64,000 nt of DNA from Candidatus Bathyarchaeota archaeon. Its GTDB lineage: Archaea > Thermoproteota > Bathyarchaeia > Bathyarchaeales > Bathycorpusculaceae. The notes below the pieces were generated by a model that ran no database searches, was not told the origin of the DNA, and saw only the letters and a program-made list of their open reading frames with translations. The translations under genes were made by a program, and so were the position numbers. The stretch spans positions 32,001 through 96,000 of the forward strand of contig CAWHXY010000008.1 in the NCBI GenBank assembly GCA_963833575.1, read 5' to 3'. Numbering within the stretch: position 1 is the stretch's first letter; every line of letters starts with the position of its first letter. Below are positions 27,881 through 63,372 of the stretch, piece after piece.

Positions 27881-28696
27881 TTGATCCTTTGGGGTGCATA
27901 TTTCATTGCCGCGGTAGTCCAAGACCCATTCGTGGATTCGGCGCCTAGTTTTGGCTATTTGGAAACCGCCTATGCAGTTGTAAACATAATTTTTAGTCTG
28001 ATAATCCTTGTAACTGCGGTGGTACTGGTGTTTCTGGGACGGAACGTTTTAAGAAGCAATTCAATATCTTCGGCGAAACAGAAACTGCTTGGGTATTTTC
28101 TGGTTCTTTGGGGTGCAGGGTGGTTCTTAAACGCCATTTTGAATGTGTTGCCTAATTATGGTTATTGGAAAACCGCAAGCACAGGGGTGTTCATCATTTT
28201 GAGTCTGATATACCTTGTAACTGCGGTGGTACTGGTGTTTCTGGGACGGAACGTTTTAAGAAGCAATTCAATATCTTCGGCGAAACAGAAACTGCTTGGG
28301 TATTTTCTGGTTCTTTGGGGTATAATATTCTTTGTCACTCCAGTCGAACAGTCATTGTATAGTCATAATTTAGGCATCGCATACACAGGGTCATCGATCA
28401 TTTTGAGTCTGATATACCTTGTAACTGCGGTGGTACTGGTGTTTCTGGGACGGAACGTTTTAAGAAGCAATTCAATATCTTCGGCGAAACAGAAACTGCT
28501 TGGGTATTTTCTGGTTCTTTGGGGTGCAGGGTGGTTCTTAAACGCCATCCTAAATGCGTTTTACAGTTATGGTTATTGGAAAAACCTAGACTCAGATTAT
28601 AACATCATTGCATATGCGGTATTCCTTGCCACTGCGGCGGTGCTGGTATTGCTGGGACGTAAAGTTTTAGGAAACAAGACAGACAAATCATCTTGA
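27881..28696 (+). CDS. Repetitive multi-pass membrane protein (four TM-hairpin units)
   Basis: LVTAVVLVFLGRNVLRSNSISSAKQKLLGYFLVLWG occurs three times plus degenerate ends; frame is open from 27800 so the start is uncertain. Confidence 0.7.
   Translation: MILWGAYFIAAVVQDPFVDSAPSFGYLETAYAVVNIIFSLIILVTAVVLVFLGRNVLRSNSISSAKQKLLGYFLVLWGAGWFLNAILNVLPNYGYWKTASTGVFIILSLIYLVTAVVLVFLGRNVLRSNSISSAKQKLLGYFLVLWGIIFFVTPVEQSLYSHNLGIAYTGSSIILSLIYLVTAVVLVFLGRNVLRSNSISSAKQKLLGYFLVLWGAGWFLNAILNAFYSYGYWKNLDSDYNIIAYAVFLATAAVLVLLGRKVLGNKTDKSS
28006..28525 (+). repeat. Three ~109-bp identical cores spaced 207 and 204 bp apart
   Basis: ccttgtaactgcggtggtactgg...ctttggggt begins at 28006, 28213 and 28417. Confidence 0.92.
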
Positions 28697-28883
28697 CAAA
28701 GCAGACCAATGGAAAACACATGCTTTTTCTATTTATACTATTTCTATAAAAGACCCGAAGAAAATGTAAGAACTAGGTGTTTTCCATAGATTTTCGTATG
28801 TTTACTGCTCTGACTTTGGTTGTCGAAGCTGACGTCAAAAAATCAGGTGTCATTGTTGTGGTAGGTGTTGGACTACCATCTGA

Positions 28884-30530: not shown

Positions 30531-30610
30531 TTATGCGTTCACTCTTAAGCATTATTCTGGGAGTGTGATATGTAGGAAGACTTACGATTTAATAAATATA
30601 GTGGATCAAC

Positions 30611-30679
30611 TGAACAACACAAATAACTTGAACAACACAAATTCACATTTCAAAGTATTAGATGATTTTTAAAAATCAT
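30611..30679. promoter_or_regulatory. Candidate operator upstream of paralogue 2: 14-bp direct repeat and 18-bp perfect palindrome
   Basis: tgaacaacacaaat at 30611 and 30629; ATGATTTTTAAAAATCAT at 30662-30679. Confidence 0.35.
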
Positions 30680-30834
30680 TCTCAGCTAATTTGAACCTGC
30701 CTTTTATTCGTATGCTGAATCTTATAATGCAAGCTATGTTTGGGGTACCGGCGGGGAAAGATTTTGTAGTTGTCTGTCCAAGCTGAAGGAATGTGCTTTC
30801 TATATTTCACGTCAGGGTCATTGGACGAACTAGA

Positions 30835-31080
30835 ATGCTTGTGTGCAGCTGAAAATGGAGCAAAAGAACGATTGCCCGTGCAATCCATCGCAAAAAGAGC
30901 AGAAGCATCGATGAAGTTGCAGACGTAGCAAACCTGAAGAGAAGAAACGTTTATGCGCTTCTACATCGTCTTCAGGAAAGAGGTATGGGCGGAAAAGAAA
31001 GTAATAAACAAACCGGCAGATCAGCATCCCCGTTAAACAACACAAAGAACATGTACAACAGCTCAATAGAAGACTTCTAG
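30835..31080 (+). pseudogene. Degraded winged-helix/HTH gene fragment
   Basis: Frame reads SIDEVADVANLKRRNVYALLHRLQERG (HTH-like); in-frame TGA at 30850 after ATG 30835. Confidence 0.4.
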
Positions 31081-31236
31081 AAAACGAAACCTGCCAGTGA
31101 TCCGCCAAGAAAGTAAGCCATTAGGCATAAAATGAAGCTTGTTTTTGCTTCGTTATTAGTCGTTTACAGTGATCTTAAGAAGCTGCAACTTCAAGAAAAT
31201 AAAGGGTATTGTGGTAGGTGTTGGACTACCATCTGA

Positions 31237-32925
31237 TCAATAGTTTGCGGTGTAAATCGCATTCGATGATGGGACTGTTATTGTGTGTGTTTGTGTTCCG
31301 TTGTCTGACCAGCTAGTGAAGGTGTATCCTGAAACGTTGTTTGCTGTTAGTGTGTATTTGCTCCCAACTTTGGCTTGAAACGTGTAAGCGGGATATAATT
31401 CTGCGGCACCATTTACTGATATGAAACTCGACCCTATTGGTGATGATGTGACTGTGACGACCACCACTGAAGGTTGAGTTTGAGTTGTGCCTGTTCCACT
31501 ATTGATAATGTTGATTGTGCAAACAGAAAATGCGTTGCCCCAAATATTATTACCAGAACATGTTGAATCCATGATAAATATTCCAATTGACGCTGTTGTA
31601 ATAGAGTTAAATTCAATAGTATTATATGATGATGCAGGGTCATTGTGGAGAGTTATTACGCCGTCATAATCATTAAGTTGACAATTTGTGAGTATGTTTC
31701 CGGAGATTATGCAATTGGTTGCGCCATTACTTGTGCTGCATTCAGCTAATTCAATTCCGTTTCCAACGTTGATTATTGTATTATTTGCGATTAAGTCGTT
31801 TGCGCCGGCTTCGACTGCGATGCCCCAGTAAGAGTTTCCGTAGCCATACATTGGGCATGATGTGCTGCTGCAGTCGTGAACGTAATTTCCAGTCATGGTT
31901 GTGTTTTCGCCTTGGGCATCTACTGCGACGTCGCTGCAGCCGTAGACTACGTTATTTATGAAGTAATCATTGGTTGATGTCGGGTCGTCTGATATGCCGT
32001 TGGCGCCGCAGTTGTAGACGGTGCAGTCTATGACTCCGTTGTTGTTTCCGGCTTCTTCGTATGCTGCAATTATTCCGAAGCAGCGGACATTGTAAACAGT
32101 GCAATTGTAGATTATGTCGTTGTTGCCGCTGTATGTTATTCCATCATTGAAGTTTGATCCGGTGAGCATAGTTTTGGCAGAGGGCAATTGGTTTAGTCCG
32201 TTTCCGTTTATTGTTGCTCCTGTTACGGTTACGAAGTTGCCGTATATCCACATGATTTTGGTGTTTAGGTTGTTGATGGCTGTTAGGACTGCGCCTGGTT
32301 GGAATGTTACTGTGACGCTGTTGATGTTGATGTTCCATGTTGCGTCTACTGTGTATGCGCCGCTTTTGATGCAGATGGTGTTGTCGCTGGTGGCTTTTCC
32401 TGTTGTTCCTAGTAGGTAGTTGAATGCTGTGCTGGAGCTTGTGCTTGTGTAGATTGGGGTGTTGGCGGAGTTTAGTATTTGGTAGTTTGAGCCTGAGGTG
32501 TCCATGGTGTAGGAGTATGTTCCTGTTGGTGTGGCGGTTGGTGTTGGTGTGGGTGTTGGTACTGATGTTGTTTTTGGGGCCAGAGTTGGGGTTGGTGTTG
32601 GTGTTGGTGTGGCGGTTGGTGTTGGTGTGGGTGTTGGTGTGGCGGTTGGTGTTGGTGTGGGTGTTGGTGTTGGTGTGGCTATTGGTTTTGGTGTGGGTGT
32701 TGGTGTGGCTATTGGTTTTGGTGTGGGTGTTGGTGTGGCTGTTGGAGTAGGGGTTGGCCACCAGTGGATGGGGTTCCACGTAAATGTTCTAGCTTGAACT
32801 ATGCTTGACGGAAACGCTGATATCATGCTTAGGATTAAGAGCGTGCAGATTACTGGAACTGCAAGTTTTGTGAGTTTTTTGAGGTTTACATGATGAAGTG
32901 TTTTCGCTAAGTTGTGTTTTTTCAT
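31237..32925 (-). CDS. Secreted right-handed beta-helix protein, paralogue 3
   Basis: Signal/TM, long TP stalk (32524-32756), ~840-bp core almost identical to paralogue 1. Confidence 0.87.
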
Positions 32926-48636: not shown

Positions 48637-49254
48637 TTATGCGAAGCAACCTGCTCCAACTAAGATTACAAAAAAGAGTATAGCGAAGTAGAAACTTAGT
48701 TTGCCAAGTTTGTAGTATCGCAATTTTGTTCTAGTTTTCCTTGAAATTGAAAAAGTCTCACGAACATGATCTCTATACGCCTTGCTCAATAAATCATTGG
48801 GACTGCTATTGAAATAACTGGTCCATAGATCGAGCTTCTCATCTGAAATTTCCTTGAAATAAAAAAGAGACTGAGGCTCAAAGGTTTTCTTGCCGTCTTT
48901 AATCTCAGTTTTGTCTTCATTCCGAAACCTTTTGCCTTGTCTGCCGATTCCACCAAGAGATGCTTCCAAAAAAATAAATATTCCAAGAGCAACAAAGATT
49001 GCGAATCCAGCAAAAGAGATTGAAATCAAGTTAAAGTGAGAATTCAAAAGATTAATTTGAACTGATAACTTTAAGTTTGCGAAAACTGCGAATGCAGTGG
49101 CTGCAGTAATAGACAGAAACGCCATCGCCTCCAATATTCTGCCAGCTTTCGTATCCTCATGCTCATTAAGTTCGGTTATATGTTCAAACATTTCCGCGAC
49201 GATTTTGTATTTTTGTTGCAAATCGTCTTTATCGATAGTGCTCACAAAATTCAA
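48637..49254 (-). CDS. Pycsar-type transmembrane effector (PycTM/DUF5706-like)
   Basis: EDTKAGRIL then two TMs, PQSLFYFKEIS, ISRKTRTKLRYY then terminal TM. Confidence 0.75.
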   Translation of the reverse strand: MNFVSTIDKDDLQQKYKIVAEMFEHITELNEHEDTKAGRILEAMAFLSITAATAFAVFANLKLSVQINLLNSHFNLISISFAGFAIFVALGIFIFLEASLGGIGRQGKRFRNEDKTEIKDGKKTFEPQSLFYFKEISDEKLDLWTSYFNSSPNDLLSKAYRDHVRETFSISRKTRTKLRYYKLGKLSFYFAILFFVILVGAGCFA

Positions 49255-49495: not shown

Positions 49496-49927
49496 ATGTT
49501 ACGTAAACCTTGGAAGCTATCCGTTAAAATCCTGATCTTTGATAACAATGGAAAATTTTTGTTGTTAAGACGGTCACTAAACTCAAAGGGAAATCCTGGT
49601 AAATGGGAGCCACCGGGAGGAAAAATTGATCAAGGTGAAACCTTTGAAACAGCCCTTATGCGCGAGATTGAAGAAGAGACTGGCTTGACCGCTTCAATTC
49701 AGCATGTTGCCGGAACATCTGAATCCGAATTATCTAAAGTAAAGATAGTTCACCTGATTTTAGAAGGAAAATTAGAATCAGGACAAGTACATATTAGCGA
49801 AGAACACATAGAATTTGAATGGATCAAACCTGAGGAACTCAACAACTTTGACATAGCAGATTGGTTTATTCCTTTCGCAGTTGAATACATTGAAAAGAAA
49901 GCGTCAAGCTTAACCAGAAAAACCTAA
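49496..49927 (+). CDS. NUDIX hydrolase
   Basis: Complete Nudix box GGKIDQGETFETALMREIEEETGL; SEEH motif. Confidence 0.93.
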   Translation: MLRKPWKLSVKILIFDNNGKFLLLRRSLNSKGNPGKWEPPGGKIDQGETFETALMREIEEETGLTASIQHVAGTSESELSKVKIVHLILEGKLESGQVHISEEHIEFEWIKPEELNNFDIADWFIPFAVEYIEKKASSLTRKT

Positions 49928-49970: not shown

Positions 49971-52457
49971 GTGAATTCAACGAAAGAAGATCAAGCTCAA
50001 CTGCTAAACGAGCAGGTTAACCAGTACACAAAGTTATTTTCAAATTACAAATTATTTGCTGATATCTTAGTTCAAATATTTGAGAAAGCTTCAACAAAAT
50101 ATGCGCCTTTAGCAATAGTACAAGCTCGCCCGAAATCAATTTCAAGTTTTGCCGAAAAAATTTTACGGAAAAATAAGTACACTGACCCTCTTAATCAAAT
50201 AACTGATTTATGCGGTGCCAGAGTCATCACACATATTCCTGAAGAAGTCGAGGAAATAGGCAAATATATTGAAAATAATTTTAATGTCGATTTCAATAAC
50301 AGTGTTGATGTAAACCAGAGATTAAAGCCCACAGAATTTGGCTATCGATCCGTTCATTACGTTGTGCAATTCAAAGAGGACATTTTTCCCAATAAAGATG
50401 TTCCCGTAAAGATTCCCGAAGAACTATTTGGTTTAAAGGCAGAAATTCAAGTAAGAACAATCTTGGAGCATTCCTGGGCTGATTTCAGTCATGATTTGAG
50501 CTATAAAGGCTCTTTTAAGATTCCTCAAAAATGGGAACGTGAACTTGCCGGATTAGCTGCCTCACTTGAATCTGCAGATAAAACCTACTCCCGAGTTCAT
50601 AATGGCCTCCAAGTTTATGCTTCCAACTTTGGAGCTTACATGTCTACAGAGCAAATGCAAAATGAAATTAGCCTTCAAGAGTTAGTTTTAGAAAACGATC
50701 CCAATAACTTTGAAGTCGCTCACCGAATAGGAAAAATAGCTATAGTAATGGGTGATTGGCAAAAAGCCATAAATGTTCTCTCCAAGTTCGTCAAATCCGA
50801 TTATCATCCTTTGATTAGAGACCTTGGCGTTGCGCTTTGTACATTCAATAAAGACAATAAAGACAGCACAGAATTCTCTCAAGGTAGAAAGTTTTTAGAA
50901 ATTGCTTGTGCTCCTCCAAATGAAGACATCGATGCACTAACATTTTTAGCAGGTACCTACAGGGGGGTTGACGAAGATAAAGCACGCGAACTTTACCAGC
51001 AAGCTTTTGCTCTCGATTCCACTAATCCTTATGTGCTCGGCAATTATTTAGAATCTGAACTAATCTGTGGACTCGATGTTCCTGCGTTATCCTTGGTTAA
51101 TCCCTTAATTGAGCTGGCAATTAAGAGAAGCCAAAGTCAAGCTGAAGTTGGCGTAAATCTGCAATGGGTATTTTATGATATTGGCCGGTTCTACCTATTT
51201 TTAGGAAAACCCTACGAAAGTCTCAGCGCCTATGCAAAAGCGATACAGGTGAGCTTAAATGATTGGGTCATCGAAGCTGCGCTTAGATCTATTGATCGAC
51301 TTGCAGTTGTAAAAAGTCAATTGACTGGATATGAATGGGTAAAACGGCTGCTTCTAATTGGATTATCATGCAAGTTTCCTGAGAGTGTTGCAGGAAAAAC
51401 TGCATTAAACAAGGCTAAAAAATTAGCCTCAACTAGACATGAACGGCTTAGTGGCGCAATAGTTATTGTGGCCGGCGGAGTCAGCTCCGAAGTTGAACTT
51501 CAAATGTTAACGTACCAGGGCCTTATGTTGGAGGCTTTTTGGGACTTTAAAGGTACAATAATTTCTGGAGGTACAATCTCAGGCATTAGCGGATTAATAG
51601 GGCAAGTGCAAGAAAAATATGCGAGCACAATTAAGACAGTTGGTTACATTCCGAAACCAACCAAAGCAGCATTGATAGATAAACGCTACTGTCAAATTCG
51701 CTTCACTGAGGGTGAAAACTTTAGCCCAACAGAGCCTCTTCAGTATTGGATAGACCTTGTTGACTCAGGCATTAACTGTAATGATGTTAAGCTTTTGGGA
51801 ATAAATGGAGGAATCATATCTTCCATAGAATACAAAATAGCGTTGGCACTTGGAGCGAGCACAGCTATTATTGAGGATGGCAAAATGGAAAAAGAAACGC
51901 TGTTCTCAGATAAAAATTGGAATACTCTGAAGAATTTTGTTCCTATGCTTAATGATTCTTTGACAGCTTGGGCTTTTGTTCAGTCGGGCGCAAAAAAACT
52001 GGACCCAGCCAGCCGAGAACAACTAGGCCAAATTATCCACAAGAACTATCTAGATGCATCTTCACAAAAGAAAAGTCTTGACCCCTCACTGCAGAATTGG
52101 CACAATTTAAAAGATGATTTGAAGGAATCAAATTGCCAGCAAGCTGATCACATAATAGAAAAGCTCAATCGCATTAATTGTTCCACACGTTTAGTAACCG
52201 ACCGTGATATTTCACTTATGCAGTTCTCAAATAGTGAAGTAGAAACAATGGCGCAAATGGAGCACGCCCGATGGAATGTTGAACGCTTTCTTGATGGATG
52301 GCGAAAAGGGCCAAAAGATGTAAGCAGGAAAATCAGCCCCTATCTAGTTTCCTGGTCAGAACTACCGGAGGATATTAAAGACTATGATAGAGATGCTGTC
52401 AAAAAAATTCCTGAAGTTCTAGCAAACATGAACTTGGAAGTAAGGCGCACAAAATAA
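49971..52457 (+). CDS. RelA/SpoT-type alarmone synthetase fused to TPR, SLOG (LSDAT-like) and RyR domains
   Basis: RPKSISSFAEK, DLCGARV, GYRSVHY and EIQVRT (synthetase); TPR-like helices; VAGG...IISGGTISGISGLIG...INGG (SLOG); EHARW...DGW...SPYLVSWSELPEDIKDYDR (RyR). Confidence 0.85.
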   Translation: MNSTKEDQAQLLNEQVNQYTKLFSNYKLFADILVQIFEKASTKYAPLAIVQARPKSISSFAEKILRKNKYTDPLNQITDLCGARVITHIPEEVEEIGKYIENNFNVDFNNSVDVNQRLKPTEFGYRSVHYVVQFKEDIFPNKDVPVKIPEELFGLKAEIQVRTILEHSWADFSHDLSYKGSFKIPQKWERELAGLAASLESADKTYSRVHNGLQVYASNFGAYMSTEQMQNEISLQELVLENDPNNFEVAHRIGKIAIVMGDWQKAINVLSKFVKSDYHPLIRDLGVALCTFNKDNKDSTEFSQGRKFLEIACAPPNEDIDALTFLAGTYRGVDEDKARELYQQAFALDSTNPYVLGNYLESELICGLDVPALSLVNPLIELAIKRSQSQAEVGVNLQWVFYDIGRFYLFLGKPYESLSAYAKAIQVSLNDWVIEAALRSIDRLAVVKSQLTGYEWVKRLLLIGLSCKFPESVAGKTALNKAKKLASTRHERLSGAIVIVAGGVSSEVELQMLTYQGLMLEAFWDFKGTIISGGTISGISGLIGQVQEKYASTIKTVGYIPKPTKAALIDKRYCQIRFTEGENFSPTEPLQYWIDLVDSGINCNDVKLLGINGGIISSIEYKIALALGASTAIIEDGKMEKETLFSDKNWNTLKNFVPMLNDSLTAWAFVQSGAKKLDPASREQLGQIIHKNYLDASSQKKSLDPSLQNWHNLKDDLKESNCQQADHIIEKLNRINCSTRLVTDRDISLMQFSNSEVETMAQMEHARWNVERFLDGWRKGPKDVSRKISPYLVSWSELPEDIKDYDRDAVKKIPEVLANMNLEVRRTK

Positions 52458-52659
52458 TGCGCTCGTGAACTGGATTAGATGACCCGTTTAAGCTTAATTT
52501 TCACGCAAAAACTAAGTTTTTTTTAGCTTAGCGTCGTTCATACATTTACAGTTGATTGAGAATAAAGGATTTTTCGAATCTTTAGTTACCTTAAATTCTT
52601 TAAATCGATAAAGTACTTAGGTATGTTACAGTGAGGTAAATAACAGAGGTATTTCCTAG

Positions 52660-53664
52660 ATGGGAAAAATTCGGGTATTCATTAGTTCTTCTTTAACTGA
52701 ACTTGAAAGCGAAAGGGAAATCGCTCAAGAGACTATTGCTCAACTAAACTTAGAGCCTGTAATGTTTGAAAGTCTTCCTGCAATGGACAAAACATTGGAA
52801 AACGCATATGTAGATGCAATAAAGGAAGCTCATATCTTTGTTTTAATTCTTTGGAAGGACCTGACAGAAGCGGTTGAAAGAGAATATAATGTAGCTAATG
52901 AATATGGGATCCCAATTCTAATGATAGTTAAAATTCCAACTTTCAGGGAAGCAAGAACTCAACGACTTGAAAATCTAATAAATATCGCGGCAAACCAGAA
53001 TCTACAGAGTAATAATCACATTGTTCCATTTCGCAAGAACTTTCGAACGCTTAGTCAACTTGAGAACGTGTTAAAAGAAGGAGTAATGAAACTTGTTTCT
53101 GACAGATTCACAGAACCAGTTTTAACAACAACTAACGTCGATCTAATCTTGGAGACTAATCTAAATATGGTCCAAAACGCTAGAAGAAGACTTCTTGTAG
53201 TTGCTAAAACACCAATACTTCTTTTTGGGCCGCGACCGTATAATTCACCGCACAAAAACTTTGCGAAAAACAAGTTCTATGACGCCTTAATTGCTTGGAT
53301 AGAGAATATGAAAAAAGATGAAAACAAAAAAATGCTCTATCTATATTCTGTTGAAGATACCTATAATGAAATGAAAGAAAACCAGCTTGAACAGTTTGTA
53401 AAAGTTAACGTAGAAAAATACAAGAAAATTGAAGAAGAAACAAACGGACGATTTGAACTCGGATCAATCCAAGAATTTCCAGGTCGCATATGTATTAGTG
53501 ACAATAATTTTGGAATATCATTTAGAGCGCCAAAAGGAAAAGTTGTTTATGTTAATCGTCAAGATGCAAGTTTTTCCTCAAATCTCTTTCAAGCTCTCCG
53601 TGATTGCCGAGGCTCTTCTGAAGCAACCTTGACTAATTTATTAAAGGAACTAAAACTGCAATAG
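52660..53664 (+). CDS. DUF4062 (TIR-like) domain protein with uncharacterised C-terminal domain
   Basis: RVFISSSLTELESERE and AVEREYNVANEYGIPIL motifs. Confidence 0.82.
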   Translation: MGKIRVFISSSLTELESEREIAQETIAQLNLEPVMFESLPAMDKTLENAYVDAIKEAHIFVLILWKDLTEAVEREYNVANEYGIPILMIVKIPTFREARTQRLENLINIAANQNLQSNNHIVPFRKNFRTLSQLENVLKEGVMKLVSDRFTEPVLTTTNVDLILETNLNMVQNARRRLLVVAKTPILLFGPRPYNSPHKNFAKNKFYDALIAWIENMKKDENKKMLYLYSVEDTYNEMKENQLEQFVKVNVEKYKKIEEETNGRFELGSIQEFPGRICISDNNFGISFRAPKGKVVYVNRQDASFSSNLFQALRDCRGSSEATLTNLLKELKLQ

Positions 53665-53901
53665 CGCACGCTATGTCTAGATGAGACAAACGATGGTTGA
53701 AAGAGTAGTTGCTTCTTTCTAAATTCAAAAGAACCTGCTGGTCGAATCCTTAATCAAGAAAGATTTAGATCGTAAAATTACATATAACTAAGCAATCGGT
53801 TGCATTGGCTTTCACTATTATAAAGTTTGTTGCAGAAAAATTAATGAAGATATTTATTGCAGCGTCGCGAGCTACTGGTAGATGAGGAGAGGGAGTGCTG
53901 G

Positions 53902-56900
53902 ATGAGTAAAATTAGGAGATTAATAGCTAAAGCTATGGTATTACTTTTTATTGCGTTGTTTATTTTTCCAATGCTAAATTCTTCCGTAACTGTACATGCA
54001 GCAGAGAATTACCAATACGTAACACAATGGGGCAGTTATGGGTCTGGACCCGGCCAATTCAATGAACCTCTTGGTGTTGCTGTAGACAGTTCAGGAAACG
54101 TCTACGTGGCAGATTGGGGATCTAATAATCGTGTTCAGAAGTTTACTAGTAACGGGGGGTTCATTCTATCGTGGGGAGGCACTGGGTCAGGTAATGGCCA
54201 ATTCAACAATCCTGGTCAGATTGCTGTTGACAGTTCAGGAAACGTCTACGTAGCTGATGCTGCTAATAATCGTGTTCAGAAATTCACTAGCAATGGCGCA
54301 TTCGTTTCATCGTTGGGAGGTTTCTTTAATCCTATCGGAATCGCTGTTGACAGTTCAGGAAACGTCTATGTTCTTGACTCATATAATGATCGGGTGGTAA
54401 AGTTTACTGGCAACGGTGTGTTAATTACATCATGGGGGACCTCTAGTGCAGGTTGGTGCGATGCTGTTGACAGTTCAGGAAACGTCTACGTAGTTGAGCC
54501 TTACATTAATCTTGTTGAAAAGTTCACTAGCACGGGTGTGTTCATTACATCATGGGGAGGCGGTGGTTCAGGTAATGGTCAATTCAGCAATCCGACTGGA
54601 ATTGCTACGGATAGTCAAGATAACGTCTACGTAACTGATACCTACAACCATCGAGTACAAAAGTTTACTAGTAGTGGCGTTTTCATTACTCAATGGAGCA
54701 TTGCAGGCTCTGGTTGGGGTGTTGCTGTTGACAGTTCAGGAAACGTCTACGTAACAGACTATAGCAATATTTGTGTACAAAAGTTCTCTATGCAAGGTAA
54801 CCCGAATCCTGCTCCGGCTGTAGCTTGGAGCCAAACTTACAACGGAATCAGTCTAAATGGTGCAAATTCGGTGGTTCAAACTAATGATGGTGGTTATGCT
54901 TTAACCGGCTCAGCAGACGTTGCAAACAATATTAGTACTACAATCTGGAAACCGTGGCTTATTAAGACGGACTCTAACGGCATGATGCTTTGGAACCAAA
55001 CCTACACCGAAGGGCTTGATTACATTGAACCATATTCACTAGCTAAAACTTCAGATGGCGGATATATGATACTTTGTGGTACAAATACTAATGTTGGCAA
55101 CCCTTGTTACAGGTTGATTAAAACTGATTCAAATGGCAATATGCTTTGGAATAAAACCTATGCAGTAAATCAGTTCGATGCGTTGGGTTCTGTCATCCAG
55201 ACGACTGACGGAGGATATGCCTTTATAGGAACAATGAGTCAACTTGGAAATTCAAATTCATACGCTATGCTTATCAAAACCGATTCCCAGGGCAACATGC
55301 TTTGGAATAAAACATACGGAGGTTTGTATTCCAATGAAGCAGATTCTTTTGTGCAAAACATTGATGGCGGTTACACGATAACAGGGGCTTCAAGTCCATC
55401 TGGAAATAATGAAGCTTGGCTTTTCAGAACTGATTTGAACGGAAATATTTTATGGAGCAAAACGTACGGAATGGGTTTGGATGCATCTTCAAACAGGCTC
55501 ATCTTGACAAGTGATGGTGGTTATGCTTTTGGGGGAACCACAGGCCCTAACTACTTTGGTACTCTTTGGAAGACAGATGCGAATGGAAATCAACAATGGA
55601 ACCAAACATATGTTGGAGCAAACTACTATGGAGTATTTTCTCTTTGTCAAACCAAAGATGGAGGATTTGCACTTATGGGTAGTCCAGGAAACGGTACAGC
55701 CCTTAATCTTCTTGTCAGAACAGACTCTTCTGGCAAAATGTTATGGGATCAATCATATTCTCAATACCTCTCAAACGCCCAGATTAACGCAATGATACTG
55801 ACAAATGATGGATGTTATGCTTTTGCAGGTTCAGTTGTGGATAATTCTGGCAACTCTAGTCCTTTCTTAATGAAGACAGATCCAGAACAAAACACTTCTA
55901 CTACACAAGTTTTACAAATAGGGAATCTGGTTGTAGGAAATCCTGCAAATTCGACTTGGAACTGCAAAGTAACTGACAACGCTACAGGAAATGTAATAAG
56001 CGAATTCACTCTTCCAGCTGCAGGAACAAGCGGTAGCTACACAAACACTGTCCAGTTAAGCAATGGCGGAAGTTACATCGTTTTTGAAGAACCACAACTC
56101 GGTTACCATACAAGTATGCAAATTAATGCCTCACAGGTTGATAGTTTTCAATTCACCGTCAATGTAAACGCAGGTGACAGTCTACAAGTCCTCTTTAATA
56201 ATACTGCCTTGGCTCCTGGATCGTTAGAATTGCCTCCGCCAAGTAGTATGAACTTTTCTATACCTCCTTTAACTCTAATTCCGATCCAAGCCGCATGGAA
56301 CCCAGACGCAAACAACGACGGTACGCTCGATCTCGTAGTCAACAAAACAATGGCGATAATCATCAACTTCACGGTACCAGTTAACCCAACTGATATAGTC
56401 AATCTCTCCGTTAAGTTTGATCAACAAGTATTCACAAAAACAGTTTACGGAGCAATTTTACAGGCAGATTCAATTATTCCTTTTTGCCCAATAACGCCAA
56501 AAAATCTTGGGAACAAAGCCCTCAACGGCACATATCAAATCAACAGTGCTTCTCCAATTAATTTTCCATCCTTGACCGTTAAGGTAAGACAAACTACCGA
56601 TTTACCTTTGGTCTATGGCTACTTTACAAGAAGCAACTACGGAACAGTATCGCAAACAGAATATTCACAAATGGCAAACACTTCAACTGTTTTCATAAAA
56701 GCAACATACCCGGTTACGAACGTTCCCGTCAATGAGAGTTATATCGGTTTAGCAGGCAACTCAAACAGTGGCGGTGGTTATTCTGGTGCAACAAAGGATC
56801 TATCGCTAGTCTTGGGTCCATACGCCAAATCCCATATGGGCCAATACACTAACGCCATTGGCATCGCAATTGAACCTGCTAGCTACTTCACCTACAATGG

Positions 56901-59160
56901 ATTAACGGGCGGTGCTGGATGGACTCCTAATCAAAATACCAAGGCTAGTTTGGTACTGGATGGCGGCTATACTGAAGCAGCTCATGAAGTAGGGCACTCG
57001 TTCGGATTATACATCGGAGCTGTTCCAGAGTACTACCTAATACCAGGTCTTGCTGGAACAAATGTCAGCGGGGTTTACCCTGACATTGATCAGTGGAGAA
57101 CAGGTCTGGACATCATGGATAGATCTAGTCAATCTGGAAACAATTGGGCAAGCACTGGCACATACAATCAATTGTTTAATTGGACCCGAGGAAACTTCAC
57201 TGACCCAGACATTCTCATAGCTAGCGGCATAATTTACAAGAACGGTACCGTTGACCTTTCCACTAGTTGGCTCGAAGTATCCCAAGGCATCCCAGACATT
57301 ATAGCACCTGGCAACTATTCACTTCAATTTTTAGCTGCCAATGGGACAGTTCTGGGTTCAATCACCTTTGACGCTCAAAGTCCTTTGAATTATGACGGTG
57401 CACCTTTCTGTTTTGCAACTGTTTATCCAAAAGGCACAAGCTACGTTAATGTTCTAAATACGGCTAATCAGGCCGCTCCACCAAAAACTCTTGCAACGGT
57501 TCAAGCAGAAGATATCGTAAAGCTAAACAACAGCGTCACGTTCGCTGAAACCGGATTACCCTTGGGCACCTCTTGGAGCGTGACTCTTGGTAGTAAAACT
57601 CTTTCCTCAACGAATTCTACTATCGCATTCACAGGTCTTGCTTATGGTAATTATGATTGGAATTCATCGACTGAAATTTCTGGTGGCGCTGGAATTAGAT
57701 ATGACGCTTCAGTTGCGTCGGGAACAATTGACGTGGAAGGCAATGTTTCCTCGACCATTGCTTACATTACCCAATATCAAGTATCCTTAGCAGTTGACCC
57801 TTCAGGTGCAGGAAGTGCTAATCCAGCCAGCGCCAACTACTATAATGTAGGTACTCAGATTCCAATTTCAGCAGCAGCCAATGATCAATATCAGTTTTTA
57901 GATTGGAGCTCAAATAGCCCATCCATAGTTTTAGCGAATGTCGCTTCGCCATCAACTTCAGCAACTATCAACGGCCCTGGCACAGTTACCTGCGCATTTG
58001 CTTCCACCATCGGCAACAGCGTGGCTTTTGCCGAAACAGGGTTGCCCTCTGGAAAACCTTGGAATGTTACTTTAGGAGGTCAGACGTTGTCTTCCACAAC
58101 TGGCGCGATCGTGTTCACTAATCTGGCTTCGGGAAGCTACAGTTGGAGCACGCCATCTATAATTTCTGGAAGTACAGGAACAAGATATGCAGCTTCAATC
58201 ACGTCAGGAACGTTAAACGTGGCGGGACAAACATCAACTAGCATTACATACACTACTCAATACCAAGTATCTTTCACAATGAACACAGTGGGGTCAGGCG
58301 TAATCAACCCAGCAACAGTCACCTTCTTTGATTCTGGTTCCAAAATCTCAATTTCCGCAACCCCAAAACCAGGCTTCACACTCTACATATGGTCTTCAAA
58401 CACACCTTCAATAACATTCACCAACAGCTCAGCAGCAACCACAACCGCAACCATAACCGGACCCGGCACTGTCACCGCCAACTTTGCCCTACTCGTCGGA
58501 GGTAACAAGCAGATCACCCTTACCGGAAGCAATAATGCGGTAATTATAACCGGCGGAAGTAACCAGATTAACGCGGTACAAGCCTCAGCTACAACTATTG
58601 TCAAAACCGGAGCAGGAAACAACATCATCAACTTAGGCAACGGCAATAATAAGGTGATAGAAACTGCAGATGGCAATGACATAATTTCAACGGGCAACGG
58701 CGACAATGTCCTATCTATTCTGGGAAACGGCAACAACCAAATCACAACAGGTAGCGGAAACGACGTCATCCAAATAACCGGAAACGGAAACAACATCATT
58801 AAAGCAGGTGACGGCGACAATCAAGTCACGGTTAAAGGCTATGGCAACAACCAAATTACAGCTGGGTCTGGAAGTGATGTCATTGTTGCAGGTGATGGAA
58901 ACAACATTATCAAAGCTGGTGATGGCAACAACAAAGTGACACTAGGAAAAGGCAATAACCTGGTCACAACTGGAACAGGTGGCGACGAAGTGACAGTTGG
59001 AAACGGAAACAACAACATTCAAACTGGAGCCGGAGATGATACCATCACCGTTGGCAAAGGCAACAACTACGTCGATGGAGGCGCTGATTACGACATCTGT
59101 TTGCACGGTACAGGGAATAACACGATACTGAACTGCGAAAAAGGAGTAATAGCAAAGTAA
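53902..59160 (+). CDS. Giant secreted protein: NHL propeller, second propeller, zinc metalloprotease, thermopsin-like repeats and RTX-like Gly/Asn repeats
   Basis: Signal peptide; FNxPxGIAVDSSGNVYV repeats; GGY..KTDSNGNMLWNKTY repeats; AAHEVGHSFG; VTFAETGLP repeats; GxGND/NxIxx C-terminal repeats. ORF is open from 53857. Confidence 0.85.
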   Translation: MSKIRRLIAKAMVLLFIALFIFPMLNSSVTVHAAENYQYVTQWGSYGSGPGQFNEPLGVAVDSSGNVYVADWGSNNRVQKFTSNGGFILSWGGTGSGNGQFNNPGQIAVDSSGNVYVADAANNRVQKFTSNGAFVSSLGGFFNPIGIAVDSSGNVYVLDSYNDRVVKFTGNGVLITSWGTSSAGWCDAVDSSGNVYVVEPYINLVEKFTSTGVFITSWGGGGSGNGQFSNPTGIATDSQDNVYVTDTYNHRVQKFTSSGVFITQWSIAGSGWGVAVDSSGNVYVTDYSNICVQKFSMQGNPNPAPAVAWSQTYNGISLNGANSVVQTNDGGYALTGSADVANNISTTIWKPWLIKTDSNGMMLWNQTYTEGLDYIEPYSLAKTSDGGYMILCGTNTNVGNPCYRLIKTDSNGNMLWNKTYAVNQFDALGSVIQTTDGGYAFIGTMSQLGNSNSYAMLIKTDSQGNMLWNKTYGGLYSNEADSFVQNIDGGYTITGASSPSGNNEAWLFRTDLNGNILWSKTYGMGLDASSNRLILTSDGGYAFGGTTGPNYFGTLWKTDANGNQQWNQTYVGANYYGVFSLCQTKDGGFALMGSPGNGTALNLLVRTDSSGKMLWDQSYSQYLSNAQINAMILTNDGCYAFAGSVVDNSGNSSPFLMKTDPEQNTSTTQVLQIGNLVVGNPANSTWNCKVTDNATGNVISEFTLPAAGTSGSYTNTVQLSNGGSYIVFEEPQLGYHTSMQINASQVDSFQFTVNVNAGDSLQVLFNNTALAPGSLELPPPSSMNFSIPPLTLIPIQAAWNPDANNDGTLDLVVNKTMAIIINFTVPVNPTDIVNLSVKFDQQVFTKTVYGAILQADSIIPFCPITPKNLGNKALNGTYQINSASPINFPSLTVKVRQTTDLPLVYGYFTRSNYGTVSQTEYSQMANTSTVFIKATYPVTNVPVNESYIGLAGNSNSGGGYSGATKDLSLVLGPYAKSHMGQYTNAIGIAIEPASYFTYNGLTGGAGWTPNQNTKASLVLDGGYTEAAHEVGHSFGLYIGAVPEYYLIPGLAGTNVSGVYPDIDQWRTGLDIMDRSSQSGNNWASTGTYNQLFNWTRGNFTDPDILIASGIIYKNGTVDLSTSWLEVSQGIPDIIAPGNYSLQFLAANGTVLGSITFDAQSPLNYDGAPFCFATVYPKGTSYVNVLNTANQAAPPKTLATVQAEDIVKLNNSVTFAETGLPLGTSWSVTLGSKTLSSTNSTIAFTGLAYGNYDWNSSTEISGGAGIRYDASVASGTIDVEGNVSSTIAYITQYQVSLAVDPSGAGSANPASANYYNVGTQIPISAAANDQYQFLDWSSNSPSIVLANVASPSTSATINGPGTVTCAFASTIGNSVAFAETGLPSGKPWNVTLGGQTLSSTTGAIVFTNLASGSYSWSTPSIISGSTGTRYAASITSGTLNVAGQTSTSITYTTQYQVSFTMNTVGSGVINPATVTFFDSGSKISISATPKPGFTLYIWSSNTPSITFTNSSAATTTATITGPGTVTANFALLVGGNKQITLTGSNNAVIITGGSNQINAVQASATTIVKTGAGNNIINLGNGNNKVIETADGNDIISTGNGDNVLSILGNGNNQITTGSGNDVIQITGNGNNIIKAGDGDNQVTVKGYGNNQITAGSGSDVIVAGDGNNIIKAGDGNNKVTLGKGNNLVTTGTGGDEVTVGNGNNNIQTGAGDDTITVGKGNNYVDGGADYDICLHGTGNNTILNCEKGVIAK

Positions 59161-59205
59161 CAGGCGTTCAATTTTTCAAACATGAATTTGGAGGTGAAAA
59201 TAGAA

Positions 59206-59628
59206 ATGAAAAGAAATATGATCATAATTGGAACAACCCTCATATTGATATCAATGCTGGCTTCCATAGCCCTGGCAGCGGCGTCAAACGTCTACTACCC
59301 CGACTTGCAGATTCAACTAAAAGGAGTAATCTGGACCATACCTACTGATATTAACCTAGATGGCAAGCCCGATTTTAACAGTTACCTATTGATAAGAAGC
59401 TCCGTTGTGGCTACTGTTTTCGTCGACACAAACAATGACGGACTGATTGACACTACCGTTGTTGTCCATCCGCTTGTAATCCTAATAGATAAGAATGACA
59501 TCTACCTCGTTTTCTGCCCAAGCAGTCTTCCAACAGGCGTGGCGCTCAAGACTTTGGTGACAGCAAACCTCCAAGGTGGAGACTCAATCGTCGCAACAGG
59601 TCCAGGATTCACATATCGAATCAAATAG
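59206..59628 (+). CDS. Small secreted protein with two DxNxDG Ca-binding-like motifs
   Basis: Signal peptide, DINLDGKPD and DTNNDGLID; GGAGGTGA upstream of ATG 59206. Confidence 0.65.
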   Translation: MKRNMIIIGTTLILISMLASIALAAASNVYYPDLQIQLKGVIWTIPTDINLDGKPDFNSYLLIRSSVVATVFVDTNNDGLIDTTVVVHPLVILIDKNDIYLVFCPSSLPTGVALKTLVTANLQGGDSIVATGPGFTYRIK

Positions 59629-59706
59629 CATATTGGAGCTATCTTTGCTCCCCATTCCTGTTTTTTGGAGCAACTTCTGAAACATTTTATTAACAGTCTC
59701 ATATAA

Positions 59707-62700
59707 TTGGATTCGTTAAGTCACACTGTATCAGGAAAAGGATTGTTTATGGGCACTATTCGCGCAGAAAAGGAATACAAGTGGCTGGAAGCAGCGAAAG
59801 CTCATGAACAAAAGGCAAAAACAGAAACAAACAAAAATGTCGCCGCAGAATCTTTTAAAAAAATAGGATTCTGGTACAGTTTAGCCTCAAGGCAAGCTCA
59901 CAGCCCAGAGGAATTCAAGAAACTTAGGAAACTATCAATCGAAGCTTACGAAACGGCCGCCAAACTTTTTCGTGAGAGTACAGCTACAGAAAAAGAAGGA
60001 AGAAGCGCAGATTGTCTAGTAATGGCCGACTACACGAGATCGTGGCTCGCTCCTAACTCTGTTCAGAAATGCGAAATAATTCACAAATGTATCTCCAATG
60101 GGCAAAATGCTTTAGAAGCGTTCAAAAAGATAACCGAGAATTTGAACTACGCCAGAACATGCAACCTTCTAGCCCAGTGCATGTTTGACTTAGTTTCTAT
60201 TACTTCTCAAACAGAAGAAAAACTCGAAGTTGCCAAAAAAGGATTACTTTACGTAATGGATGCAGTCTCAGTTTTGTCTAATTTTGACGAAAAAGGTGAG
60301 TTGATCACTTCCTTCTCCTTGGCTAGTCTTCTCAGTTGGCACATTGCAAACCTTAGCGATCAGGAAGAGGAGAGAAAAGATTTAACGAAGAAATGTTTGA
60401 GTTATGCAACTGATGCTGCAACTCTTGCGAACCAGACAGTTAACCCTTATTCTTGCATCATGTCTTTATGGGCAAAAGCGTTGTCTTCTTTCTATTTCGG
60501 AGAAAAAACCCAGGATTCCTCAAAATATACGCAAAAAATGTTCAAGCTAAGCTCAATCATTGAAGACAATTACTTCAAGGGTGTCGCGTGCTATCTGGAG
60601 GCTTACATTAAAAATTGGAGCGTCGAGGAAGAAGAAGACATTGATAAGAAAAAGAAAGCTTACAACGAAATTATTACCTCTTCAGAAGCAGCAATACAAT
60701 ACTACCAATTGGTCTGTCAGGATTCGGATATCGCAGAAGCCTATTTGTTTTATGCAGAAAGCTACTTATCGTTGGCAAACGAAATCGCCATCTCCATAAA
60801 AGATAAAAAAGATTTTTCCGAAAAATCTGTTAGGATTGGAGAGGAAGGGTTGAAGTTTGCCGTTAGTTCCGGGTCAGTTGATGCAATGCTTTCTACCGTT
60901 CACGCCCTTAGCAAAGCTTATCATTATCGTTCTAAACTCGAACCCGGAATCGATAAGAAACTTGAACTGTTGAAAAACGCTTTAGGCTACAGAGAAGAAA
61001 GCCTAAGGATTGGAGAACAAGCTTTTTCGTCCAACTTCTGGATTTTAGGCGTTGCCATGATCTATGAAGCATTAATAAAAGTGGACTTGGCCAAACTTGA
61101 AGAAAATCAAATCACCAAAGCCACCTACTTAAAAGAAGCAGTTAGAGATATGGAAAGCGGCGTATCTTACAGTAACAAATGGCTCAAAACCTGCTCCGTA
61201 CCCTCACTTGTAACAGTCGCAGCAAACTATGAAGATAGGTTCGGGGGAATGCTTGCTGAACAATACCAACAAACTTGCCAAAAAGAGGATCTGGTCAACG
61301 CAAACAAAACCTACAGCGAAGCCGCAACAAAGTTCAAAGAAGTTGATTTACCCAGTCGAGTAGCAGAATCCTATTGGAAAATTGCTATAAACCTCGATCT
61401 ATTAAGCGAGAACGCTCAAGCTGCGGAGAACTTTGAGAAAGCCTTTTCCTGGTACAAAACAGCGGCTCGAAAAATCGACCAGTTCAACGACTTCTATATC
61501 GATTATGCGTCCTATATGAAAGCATGGAGCGAAATCGAAAATGCCAAATATGCACATAACAATGATAAATACTCAATCGCTGCGAGCCATTATCAAGAAA
61601 CTTCCAATCTTCTCAAACAATCGAAATCCTGGAACTACTTGTCTTCAAACTTTCTTGCTTGGTCACTTCTGGAGCAAGCGGAAGACCTAAGCAGAAAAGA
61701 CAATTGCCGAGAATCTATAATAGCATTCAAGAAATCTGTAGAAACCTTTCGAGAATCCGCGCGAATCTTGCATAATGAATTGGGCAGAATCAACAAGGTT
61801 GATGAACAAAATCTAGTCAAGAGACTAATACACGCATCAAACAATAGGGTCGAATATAGTAATGGAAGAATCGCAATTGAAGAAGCGATAATTTCTGACA
61901 AGCAAGGCGACCACGACAATAGCTCCCGAAAATATGAATCTGCAGCAGAAATCTTTAGAAAAATTGTCCAGATCGATCCGCAGCAAACGGGAAAAGAAGC
62001 TGAACCACTCTTCTATCTCTGCCAAGCATGGCAAAAAATGACTTTGGCGGAGGCCAGGAGCTCTCCCATATTGTACGAGGAAGCAGCAGACCTATTCAAG
62101 CTTGCAAACAAATTCTCGACCAAAGAATCAACTAGCCTATTAGCGTTGGGACACAGCAACTTTTGCAAAGCAATGGAAGCCGGAGCAGAATTTGAAATGA
62201 CAAGAAGCACAACCATGTACGAACAAACAACTAAACATATGAGTTCAGCAGCTAACTATTATCTACGCGCTGGTTTTGAATCGGCCTCGGATTTCACAAA
62301 AGCCACTCAACGCTTATTCGACGCATACGTATTCATGGACACGGCTAAACGTGAAAAAGACCCGCAGAGAGAAGCAAAGTACTATTTGATGGCGGAAAAA
62401 GTGTTGCAAATATCTGCTGAATGTTTTACTAAAGCAGGGCACATTGAAAAAAATGATCAAGTCCAACGTCTACTTAGGAAAGTCAGAGATGAGAAGGAAA
62501 TAGTACTTTCCTTGAATGAAATCTTTAATGCTTCAAGTATTGCGTCGTCAACAGCGAGTTTCGCGACTATAGGACCAAACGAGGAAGAGGCGGTTGGTTT
62601 AGAAAGGTTCGAGCATGGAGACATACAAGCAAAGTTAGATCAAAAAGAAATTGAAACTAACTTGGAAAGTGCCATAAGTCTTGAATTAAAGATTGTAAAC

Positions 62701-63372
62701 GTAGGCAAAGAATCTGTTCGAATGACGAAAATTGAAAAAGTCGTGCCAGCTGGATTTCAAGTAATAACTAAACCAGACTACTGTTCTATTGAGGGCAGTG
62801 CCCTTGTTATGATGGGAAAGAAACTAGGTCCTCTTAAAACTGAAATAATAAGGATTACTTTGAAATCGTCTGAAAAAAGTCCAGTTGAAATTAAGCCTAG
62901 AATTGTTTGCGTTGATGAAACGGGGCTACAAGCAAGCTATGATGTTGAATCAGCCTATGACGTATTTATCAGTTATTCCCAAAATGATAAAAAAGTAGCC
63001 GATGCAATATGCTCCACTTTGGAGAGCCAGGAGATTCGATGTTGGATAGCCCCTCGTAACGTGAATATTAGTAAACCCTTTCTAAGCGAGATTATTCACG
63101 CCCTAAACAATAGCCAGATCTTTGTACTAGTATTCAGCAACAATGCAAACCACTCGAACCATGTTATCAGAGAAACAGAATTAGCAGTCCATAGAGGAAT
63201 TACAATCATACCCTTTCGAATAGAAAACGTCTTGCCAATAGAAAGTATGGAATATTTGATTTCTATTTCACAATGGCTCGACGCAACGACTGTTCCAATT
63301 GAGAAACATTTGCAGAAACTTGTAGAAACCGTACAAGCACTTTTATCAAACAATATCGAAACGCATGATTAG
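59707..63372 (+). CDS. Large TPR/helical-repeat protein with C-terminal TIR domain
   Basis: ~950 aa of AAxxYxxAA helical repeats, Ig-like segment, then YDVFISYS...CWIAPRNV...HVIRETELA (TIR with conserved Glu). Confidence 0.87.
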   Translation: MDSLSHTVSGKGLFMGTIRAEKEYKWLEAAKAHEQKAKTETNKNVAAESFKKIGFWYSLASRQAHSPEEFKKLRKLSIEAYETAAKLFRESTATEKEGRSADCLVMADYTRSWLAPNSVQKCEIIHKCISNGQNALEAFKKITENLNYARTCNLLAQCMFDLVSITSQTEEKLEVAKKGLLYVMDAVSVLSNFDEKGELITSFSLASLLSWHIANLSDQEEERKDLTKKCLSYATDAATLANQTVNPYSCIMSLWAKALSSFYFGEKTQDSSKYTQKMFKLSSIIEDNYFKGVACYLEAYIKNWSVEEEEDIDKKKKAYNEIITSSEAAIQYYQLVCQDSDIAEAYLFYAESYLSLANEIAISIKDKKDFSEKSVRIGEEGLKFAVSSGSVDAMLSTVHALSKAYHYRSKLEPGIDKKLELLKNALGYREESLRIGEQAFSSNFWILGVAMIYEALIKVDLAKLEENQITKATYLKEAVRDMESGVSYSNKWLKTCSVPSLVTVAANYEDRFGGMLAEQYQQTCQKEDLVNANKTYSEAATKFKEVDLPSRVAESYWKIAINLDLLSENAQAAENFEKAFSWYKTAARKIDQFNDFYIDYASYMKAWSEIENAKYAHNNDKYSIAASHYQETSNLLKQSKSWNYLSSNFLAWSLLEQAEDLSRKDNCRESIIAFKKSVETFRESARILHNELGRINKVDEQNLVKRLIHASNNRVEYSNGRIAIEEAIISDKQGDHDNSSRKYESAAEIFRKIVQIDPQQTGKEAEPLFYLCQAWQKMTLAEARSSPILYEEAADLFKLANKFSTKESTSLLALGHSNFCKAMEAGAEFEMTRSTTMYEQTTKHMSSAANYYLRAGFESASDFTKATQRLFDAYVFMDTAKREKDPQREAKYYLMAEKVLQISAECFTKAGHIEKNDQVQRLLRKVRDEKEIVLSLNEIFNASSIASSTASFATIGPNEEEAVGLERFEHGDIQAKLDQKEIETNLESAISLELKIVNVGKESVRMTKIEKVVPAGFQVITKPDYCSIEGSALVMMGKKLGPLKTEIIRITLKSSEKSPVEIKPRIVCVDETGLQASYDVESAYDVFISYSQNDKKVADAICSTLESQEIRCWIAPRNVNISKPFLSEIIHALNNSQIFVLVFSNNANHSNHVIRETELAVHRGITIIPFRIENVLPIESMEYLISISQWLDATTVPIEKHLQKLVETVQALLSNNIETHD

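Follow-up and report, generated by a model that had tools for sequence, protein, structure and literature searches.

An archaeal RelA/SpoT synthetase fused to TRPM-type SLOG and ryanodine-receptor repeat domains, in a locus with predicted TIR-family partners

We describe a gene from a Candidatus Bathyarchaeota archaeon (GenBank assembly GCA_963833575.1, contig CAWHXY010000008.1), found within a stretch of 64,000 nucleotides (forward-strand positions 32,001 to 96,000; hereafter the window, to which all coordinates refer). The gene (49971..52457, plus strand, GTG start) encodes a protein of 828 residues in which a RelA/SpoT synthetase is followed by tetratricopeptide repeats (TPR), a SLOG domain and two ryanodine-receptor (RyR) repeats. 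Judged by its sequence, the protein is a synthetase-only RelA/SpoT homologue (RSH) carrying sensor extensions. We consider the chances evenly balanced that the gene stands at the centre of a conflict (defence) module that is Thoeris-like, signals through nucleotides and moves horizontally. The associated mechanism, in which NADase-derived ligands of the ADP-ribose (ADPR) type would bind SLOG and RyR, switch the synthetase on and be followed by a reset through a MutT/NudG-like Nudix hydrolase, seems to us equally apt to prove right or wrong. This interpretation rests on the intact synthetase motifs, the SLOG fold, the RyR pair, the co-occurrence of Nudix and TIR or DUF4062 genes, and the clustering of genes that are single-copy in the genome; ligand, product and defence role are all inferred by analogy with characterised systems.

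A first-pass annotation of this DNA had proposed a synthetase-only RSH with TPR, a TRPM-type SLOG domain and an RyR module, and the architecture was upheld segment by segment using Pfam, homologue alignment, fold searches and hhalign. Its full-length homologues span 46-100% identity, and the start of the protein agrees with the starts of those aligned. The synthetase domain spans residues ~20-215 (50028..50615), with a RelA_SpoT (PF04607) core at residues 53-180 (nt 50127-50510; E 3e-19; score 69.8 bits, cut-off 27), and the same family was matched in all 41 full-length homologues. The annotation had also called all four synthetase motifs intact, which we take, as it did, to be RxKxxxSxxxK, DxxGxR, GYxSxH and ExQxRT. 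Each could be read in the translation, at R53-x-K55-xxx-S59-xxx-K63, D79-xx-G82-x-R84, G124-Y125-x-S127-x-H129 and E158-x-Q160-x-R162-T163 (nt ~50127-50459 together), and R53, K55, D79, G82, R84, G124, Y125, H129, E158, Q160 and T163 are invariant across the 41 homologues. As it had further stated, the protein lacks HD, TGS and ACT domains, none of which was matched by Pfam at E<=0.1. Three homologues of ~1055 residues (P0012, P0013 and P0014) carry an additional C-terminal KaiC/RecA-like ATPase domain (PF06745).

The closest sequence relatives of the head in the Protein Data Bank (PDB) are RelQ/YjbM and RelP/YwaC (E 1.4e-11 to 2.6e-8), while the solved chains of toxic small alarmone synthetases (toxSAS; FaRel2, CapRel and Tas1) were absent from the same search at E<=1. 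The PADLOC candidate-defence model PDC-S33 also matches the head (E 8.1e-19). From its sequence, the pyrophosphokinase head is intact, RelQ/RelP-like and hydrolase-free, with catalysis predicted. RelQ and RelP (5ded, 5dec, 6ewz, 6fgj) share with it the synthetase-only RSH fold and every catalytic motif; they are stand-alone proteins of ~210 residues, whereas the archaeal protein adds ~610 residues of TPR, SLOG and RyR and lies in a TIR/Nudix neighbourhood. It thus falls outside the small alarmone synthetases (SAS) when these are strictly defined as single-domain proteins, although it resembles them in lacking HD, TGS and ACT domains.

The TPR region (residues ~222-470, 50634..51380) gave matches to TPR_2, TPR_8, TPR_12 and other TPR families at residues ~239-428, and TPR-S (PF20308) was matched in 21 of the 41 homologues. 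Downstream of it, at residues ~490-676 (51438..51998), lies a SLOG domain that belongs to the LSDAT (TRPM) type and is defined by fold and by Pfam matches of homologues. The strings from which this domain was originally suspected (IVAGG, GGTxxGxxxLIG and NGG) are all present, as I499-V-A-G-G503, G533-G-T-xx-G538-xxx-L-I-G544 and N612-G-G614. A middle segment unlike SLOG had been named as one outcome that would count against the proposal; instead, AlphaFold2 (AF2) modelled residues 478-680 confidently (pLDDT 87.6, pTM 0.88), and SLOG folds lead both structure searches. Foldseek returned 106 matches at E<=1e-3, headed by the N-termini of TRPM2/4/8 and the MoCo carrier protein (MCP) at E 3e-6 to 1e-4. 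In an independent all-against-all structural search the first 26 rows, assigned from their entry titles, all belong to the SLOG superfamily (Z 16.9 to 9.4); they include TM1055 (Z 16.9), MCP (15.9), TRPM2 (14.8), the LOG-family protein PpnN/YgdH (14.2-14.5), LOG (13.9), DprA (13.5), the SLOG domain of ThsA (7uxs, 9.8) and YpsA (9.6). As modelled, the middle segment has a SLOG fold.

The same comparisons leave room for SLOG to be an enzyme. It would then cleave nucleotides with release of the base, in the manner of LOG or PpnN, the RelA head would pyrophosphorylate the product or ADPR, and the composite new signal would be read by RyR-domain proteins. The nearest folds do include the enzymes LOG and TM1055 (Z 13.9-16.9), separate RyR-domain genes occur in ~25 related loci (see below), and the loops S532-G-G-T...G538 and N612-G-G...E620 resemble what we take to be the LOG motifs. 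On the other hand, the LSDAT-type SLOG domains of TRPM channels are ligand binders, that of TRPM2 binding ADPR (PMC13143021), and a Thoeris survey describes SLOG effectors that are activated by TIR products, with the SLOG domain of ThsA as ligand binder (10.64898/2025.12.03.692087). We give an enzymatic SLOG little credence, the least of the readings considered here.

At the C-terminus, the annotated RyR-repeat module was recovered by Pfam and extended by a second, degenerate copy. The canonical repeat (residues 744-828, 52200..52454) matches RyR (PF02026) over residues 746-825 (E 4e-13; score 49.9 bits, cut-off 27.4); its further matches, at E 5.7e-14 to 1e-5, are Repeat12 of RyR1/RyR3 and RyR chains from bacteria. 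Among the 41 homologues its H765, R767, E771, R772 and W777 never vary, and W768 hardly does (kept in at least 90%). The preceding residues 677-743 (51999..52199) form a shortened, degenerate repeat that is invisible to phmmer and Pfam; hhalign aligned it with the canonical copy at a probability of 96.5% (E 8e-10, 66 columns), and it carries H690-xx-Y693 where the canonical repeat has HxxW. The C-terminus thus holds two repeats in tandem, as in animal RyR Repeat12, from which it differs in the degeneracy of the first. The ESM Atlas, taken as a lead only, returned nothing but RyR clusters for residues 676-828 (0.85-0.86). In RyR3 Repeat12, Trp880 sandwiches an adenine nucleotide (AMP-PCP or ADP), which Lys884, Arg895 and further residues hold in place (PMC12627627). 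On a residue-number map deduced from how far apart the two HxxW tryptophans lie (114 residues), W768, R772 and K782 align with RyR3 W880, K884 and R895, K782 being mostly conserved by consensus. The nucleotide-contact residues thus appear to be kept in the canonical repeat, and nucleotide binding is predicted.

The strongest context for the gene, absent from the first-pass annotation, is its neighbours: a DUF4062 gene directly downstream, a TIR gene 7.2 kb downstream, and, on the upstream side, a PycTM-like gene. The DUF4062 gene (52660..53664, plus strand, 202 nt downstream) encodes 334 residues (Pfam E 4e-12; AF2 pLDDT 84.8). Residues 1-150 resemble MilB (Z 14.3), the SfSTING TIR (13.3), the SARM1 TIR (12.8) and ThsB (11.2), and residues 150-334 resemble TrmBL2 (12.8) and NucT (11.8); from its model, the protein is a TIR/nucleoside-deoxyribosyltransferase fold, as in TIR-like NADases, followed by a PLD-like domain. 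In that PLD/NucT/TrmBL2-like part R264 and D281 are invariant and a conserved HKD motif is absent, and the domain may bind rather than catalyse. The TIR gene (59707..63372, plus strand) encodes a 1221-residue cytoplasmic protein without a transmembrane (TM) segment, with a C-terminal TIR_2 domain at residues 1086-1205 (nt 62962-63321; E 7.2e-19). The 205-residue PycTM-like membrane protein (48637..49254, minus strand) is divergent from the operon; it matches PADLOC's PycTM model (E 6.4e-9), has three hydrophobic segments (residues 40-58, 76-94 and 186-204), and six of its nine relatives carry PF18967. Its homologues adjoin the synthetase gene, in another position, in two further Bathyarchaeia loci (L015, E 5.5e-90; L028, E 9.2e-66). 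RelA_SpoT, RyR, DUF4062 and TIR_2 have a single match each in the genome (2.75 Mb, 94% complete), and all four lie within 14 kb, at 49971-63372.

A Nudix hydrolase gene (49496..49927, plus strand, 143 residues) ends 43 nt upstream of the synthetase gene on the same strand. Its product matches NUDIX (PF00293; E 1.8e-23, 83.5 bits against a cut-off of 21.1) and the PADLOC candidate-defence model PDC-S07 (E 4.4e-24), and its Nudix box GX5EX7REUXEEXGU is intact. The first-pass annotation saw in the fusion and its adjacent Nudix gene an echo of the nucleotide-sensing domains of TRPM2 and RyR channels, and the adjacency is confirmed. The analogy with the NUDT9-H domain of TRPM2 is weaker than that of SLOG, because the hydrolase is nearest to the MutT-related, RppH, NudI and NudG NTP pyrophosphohydrolases (3grn, E 4.5e-25; 2rrk, E 1.6e-11) and its match to an ADPR pyrophosphatase reaches only 5e-6 (1v8i).

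How constant these partners are was assessed in a census of related loci, for which 80 of 328 confirmed loci were kept, their open reading frames (ORFs) called, and the ORFs searched with the window proteins and with profiles derived from the loci; many of the 80 have short flanks. A Nudix relative was found in 53: immediately upstream on the same strand in 31, upstream with overlapping start calls in 5 more, immediately downstream in 10, upstream beyond one intervening gene in 5, and elsewhere in 2. The tight two-gene layout familiar from toxSAS is therefore present, with Nudix directly adjoining in 46 of the 80.

Such a layout is also what would be expected of a toxin-antitoxin-like pair that works without TIR. 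A toxSAS-type toxin would make (pp)pApp or pyrophosphorylate tRNA CCA ends, a viral protein on the TPR would trigger it, Nudix would be a type IV-like antidote, and the TIR and DUF4062 genes would be mere co-residents of an island. CapRel is triggered by capsid. Besides the bicistronic arrangement with its 43-nt gap, this reading draws on the census, in which Nudix is the commonest partner (53/80, against 38/80 for TIR or DUF4062) and is present alone in 18 loci, and on the TPR-S sensor repeats found in about half of the homologues. A precedent exists in the toxSAS FaRel, which is neutralised by a hydrolase partner (PMC7229694). Against it, the head is nearest to the non-toxic RelQ and RelP rather than to any solved toxSAS, the invariant SLOG and RyR modules are given no role, and a specific TIR clade travels with the synthetase gene. 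We regard a TIR-independent pair as unlikely, if well short of far-fetched.

The signalling interpretation draws more directly on the TIR family. TIR-domain ORFs were found in 27 of the 80 loci and DUF4062 ORFs in 13, one or the other being present in 38; nine loci had none of Nudix, TIR, DUF4062 and TrkA-RyR. The window TIR domain matches ORFs in 20 loci, 13 of them at E<=1e-29, and its matches to TIR domains beside the synthetase elsewhere range from E 1e-29 to 1e-48. The parts fused to those TIR domains vary (propeller, WD40, TPR, LVIVD), and the TIR may stand at either end of the protein. Ten of the twelve cluster-1 neighbours examined with Pfam have TIR_2 or DUF4062 beside WD40, beta-propeller, LVIVD, TPR or NACHT parts, and the other two have only WD40 families among the matches listed. 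An immune receptor partner would be expected to show, in its sequence, this combination of a constant TIR with diversifying sensor parts. Only close relatives have the short DUF4062-PLD form (47 clusters, and locus L085 as well), and a phmmer search of the first 80 loci with the 334-residue protein found no homologue.

A second recurrent neighbour is a protein of ~600 residues with two N-terminal hydrophobic segments, a TrkA_N (RCK-like) domain and a C-terminal RyR repeat; Pfam found TrkA_N in nine and RyR in eight of ten such proteins. Examples lie at L008:2588-4396, L007:3684-5468 and L063:8017-9756 and in ~20 further loci, and the loop between their two segments is conserved. These proteins with two TM segments (2TM-TrkA_N-RyR) are predicted to be a ligand-gated channel bearing an RyR repeat. 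With split main genes set aside, RyR-bearing ORFs beyond the main gene occur in ~25 loci; overall, some 25-30 loci have a separate RyR gene, mostly of the 2TM-TrkA_N-RyR kind. The family often travels with RyR-bearing membrane proteins of this channel-like sort or of a pore type. Conversely, an RyR-less form with RelA and SLOG parts occurs in 18 loci, some of them truncated at contig ends, and five RyR-less loci have a separate RyR gene just upstream.

Other neighbours were noted in the census. At L020:2775-5414, L037:2775-5414 and L060:3078-5717, the gene immediately preceding an RyR-less Rel+TPR+SLOG form encodes a soluble 879-residue protein in which Pfam sees nothing but two RyR stretches. 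A ClpB-like double AAA+ ATPase of ~765 residues is present in 10 of the 80 loci (L055:1042-3339, L041:2180-4480, L077:2114-4384 and 7 others), five of which also encode a companion of ~190 residues without a Pfam match. SLATT_1/SLATT_3 membrane proteins are found near the synthetase gene in 4 loci, e.g. L018:8758-10371.

In the mechanism that we propose, attack would lead the TIR and/or DUF4062 proteins to cleave NAD+. An ADPR-type product would then enter the SLOG pocket, in keeping with the binding of ADPR by TRPM2 MHR1/2 and of 3' cyclic ADPR by ThsA, and an adenine nucleotide might also fill the RyR cleft as a second nucleotide site. Ligand binding would release or oligomerise the synthetase, which would make nucleotides of the (p)ppGpp/(p)ppApp type or place pyrophosphate on another 3'-OH. 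Growth arrest would follow, and the PycTM-like membrane protein would perhaps be driven as well. Finally, the MutT/NudG-like Nudix, translated just upstream, would hydrolyse product or signal, keeping the system silent and resetting it. That DUF4062 is a TIR-like NADase producing ADPR is stated in a preprint (10.64898/2026.05.01.722283).

This scheme could be extended into a two-tier relay, in which a NADase-made ADPR-type signal acts on SLOG, the synthetase answers with an alarmone-type signal of its own, and RyR clefts serve as the receptors of the latter, an arrangement ancestral to eukaryotic channel regulation; we find the extension very doubtful. Equally speculative is its assignment of the receptors, which would be the RyR repeats on the synthetase itself, for feedback, and those on the co-encoded 2TM-TrkA_N-RyR channel-like proteins.

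Several observations weigh against the TIR-driven scheme. No TIR or DUF4062 gene was found in the covered DNA of 42 of the 80 loci, many of which have short flanks, and in the window the TIR gene lies 7.2 kb downstream of the synthetase gene, beyond two genes for secreted proteins. The Nudix resembles NTP rather than ADPR pyrophosphatases in sequence and is thus uninformative on an ADPR signal. The 828-residue protein itself falls below the cut-off of LSDAT_prok (PF18171; residues 497-564, E 0.036, 14 against 25.4 bits); the family was matched at E<=0.01 in 37 of the 41 aligned full-length homologues (best 2.3e-9). The glycine-rich SLOG loops and E620, in their likeness to LOG catalytic motifs, could mark an enzyme rather than a sensor. 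Pfam gives no PycTM match on the 205-residue protein itself. The literature search returned no tested ligand, product, toxicity or defence phenotype. Moreover, the usual role of TIR-STAND and DUF4062 proteins is to deplete NAD as executioners and not to make signals, as described in the DUF4062 preprint cited above (10.64898/2026.05.01.722283).

The archaeal host named at the outset was borne out by the ribosomal RNA model RF01959 (1486 bits, the best within its rRNA clan). The original proposal needs one qualification here: the carrier is archaeal, and the family is widespread and mostly bacterial. Homologues amounted to at least 809 protein clusters at E<=1e-3 among 7999 scored candidates, with full-length identities of about 46-83% among the matches listed, and the 328 confirmed loci came from one-genome-per-species collections covering 185,579 species. 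By record title, 12 of the 80 kept loci are archaeal and the others come from many bacterial phyla. The fusion is therefore not an archaeal oddity. Its nearest named relative (61% identity) is in a Bathyarchaeia metagenome-assembled genome. In a FastTree phylogeny of 59 full-length rows, from which 22 of the 80 loci were omitted for ORF length, the window protein stands next to a Bathyarchaeia row (support 100) within a mostly Chloroflexota group (support 94). The tree needs four changes of domain label, of which well-supported branches force one, and transfer between the domains is therefore likely, though not proven. None of 72,556 plasmid records and none of 50,697 phage records covered at least 80% of the protein; in both collections only the head matched, to other SAS genes. 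Two DNA sequencing runs had word shares of 0.20-0.22, and no RNA run was listed.

This distribution bears on whether the protein might instead serve ordinary stress physiology. As the archaeon's own alarmone synthetase, it would read NAD+/ADPR or adenylates through SLOG and RyR, with Nudix replacing SpoT. It is the sole RelA_SpoT match in the genome, no SpoT-type HD_4 hydrolase was found in that 94% complete assembly, and the head is RelQ/RelP-like. According to one study (PMC5845004), the Nudix enzymes MutT and NudG degrade (p)ppGpp, and PpnN/YgdH, which is among the SLOG fold matches, is a (p)ppGpp-binding LOG-family protein. The spread of the family is nevertheless patchy, archaeal rows are scattered among bacterial ones, and the neighbours are of the conflict type (TIR, DUF4062, NACHT/WD40 sensors, SLATT and PycTM-like proteins). 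A purely physiological role appears to us distinctly improbable, and a conflict module of the Thoeris type remains the interpretation that we carry forward.

Type I Thoeris (ThsB TIR with ThsA SIR2-SLOG) is among the closest known systems: in both, a TIR-family gene shares the locus with a SLOG-bearing protein, and SLOG is the presumed receptor. Unlike the SIR2 NADase of ThsA, the output here would be an alarmone synthetase; the SLOG domain belongs to the LSDAT/TRPM type, the locus has Nudix, RyR and TPR parts in addition, and the defence role is predicted. With toxSAS (FaRel, FaRel2, CapRel, PhRel and Tas1) the system shares a synthetase-only RSH and a small partner gene; its partner is a Nudix, not an SAH or protein antitoxin, it has large sensor extensions, and it is no closer to solved toxSAS than to RelQ/RelP. 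TRPM2 and RyR Repeat12 offer the same LSDAT SLOG subfamily, an RyR pair with nucleotide-contact residues, and a Nudix association. In contrast to TRPM2 (SLOG MHR1/2, channel and NUDT9-H), the 828-residue protein contains no channel, and its Nudix is separate and MutT/NudG-like. Finally, the adjoining gene has the DUF4062 domain and TIR/nucleoside-deoxyribosyltransferase fold of the DUF4062/NIR/Swarozyc TIR-like NADase systems, whose published members are NAD-depleting executioners with other partner domains, whereas the window version is fused to a PLD-like domain without a conserved HKD motif.

Parts of this picture have precedents. Burroughs 2015 (NAR) reportedly defined SLOG/LSDAT and drew the SLOG-TRPM link, and may already list this architecture. 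The idea of RelA-type domains as nucleotide generators in conflict systems is already in print (PMC7159879). The main text of the Thoeris survey preprint (10.64898/2025.12.03.692087) makes no mention of alarmone, RyR or Nudix, and those of two DUF4062-system preprints contain no SLOG, RyR, SpoT or Nudix. Across the literature searched, which for preprints comprised the main texts, the fusion and its links to TIR/DUF4062, Nudix and RyR channels were neither described nor experimentally studied. The predicted novelty is TIR-SLOG signalling with an alarmone-synthetase output.

The remaining features of the window appear peripheral to the locus. Between the DUF4062 and TIR genes lie a 1767-residue NHL/beta-propeller/RTX-repeat protein with a signal-peptide-like N-terminus (53857-59160) and a 148-residue protein with one hydrophobic segment (59182-59628); both probably belong to the cell surface and have no part in the system, and the former was set aside as a member on account of its N-terminus and its lack of a TIR match. 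Further upstream, at 24983-32925, a cell-surface protein cluster is suggested by three large proteins of the right-handed beta-helix/NosD-like kind, one of which has collagen repeats. Scanning the window for Rfam families and tRNAs yielded no match.

Looking forward, if our interpretation is correct, TIR/NADase immune signalling would gain alarmone synthesis as a new kind of output, and this in archaea, where to our knowledge RSH enzymes and such systems have barely been studied. The protein, soluble and tractable, would also place an enzyme that is easy to assay under the control of a SLOG domain of the TRPM type and of an RyR pair, and would hence offer a direct route to the ligands of both eukaryotic channel modules. 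Should the relay hold as well, an RyR repeat would for the first time have a defined ligand-receptor role, and the coupling of the nucleotide-sensing modules found in TRPM2 and RyR would prove to have existed already in prokaryotic immunity. Because the family spans hundreds of species, one successful reconstitution would annotate many genes.

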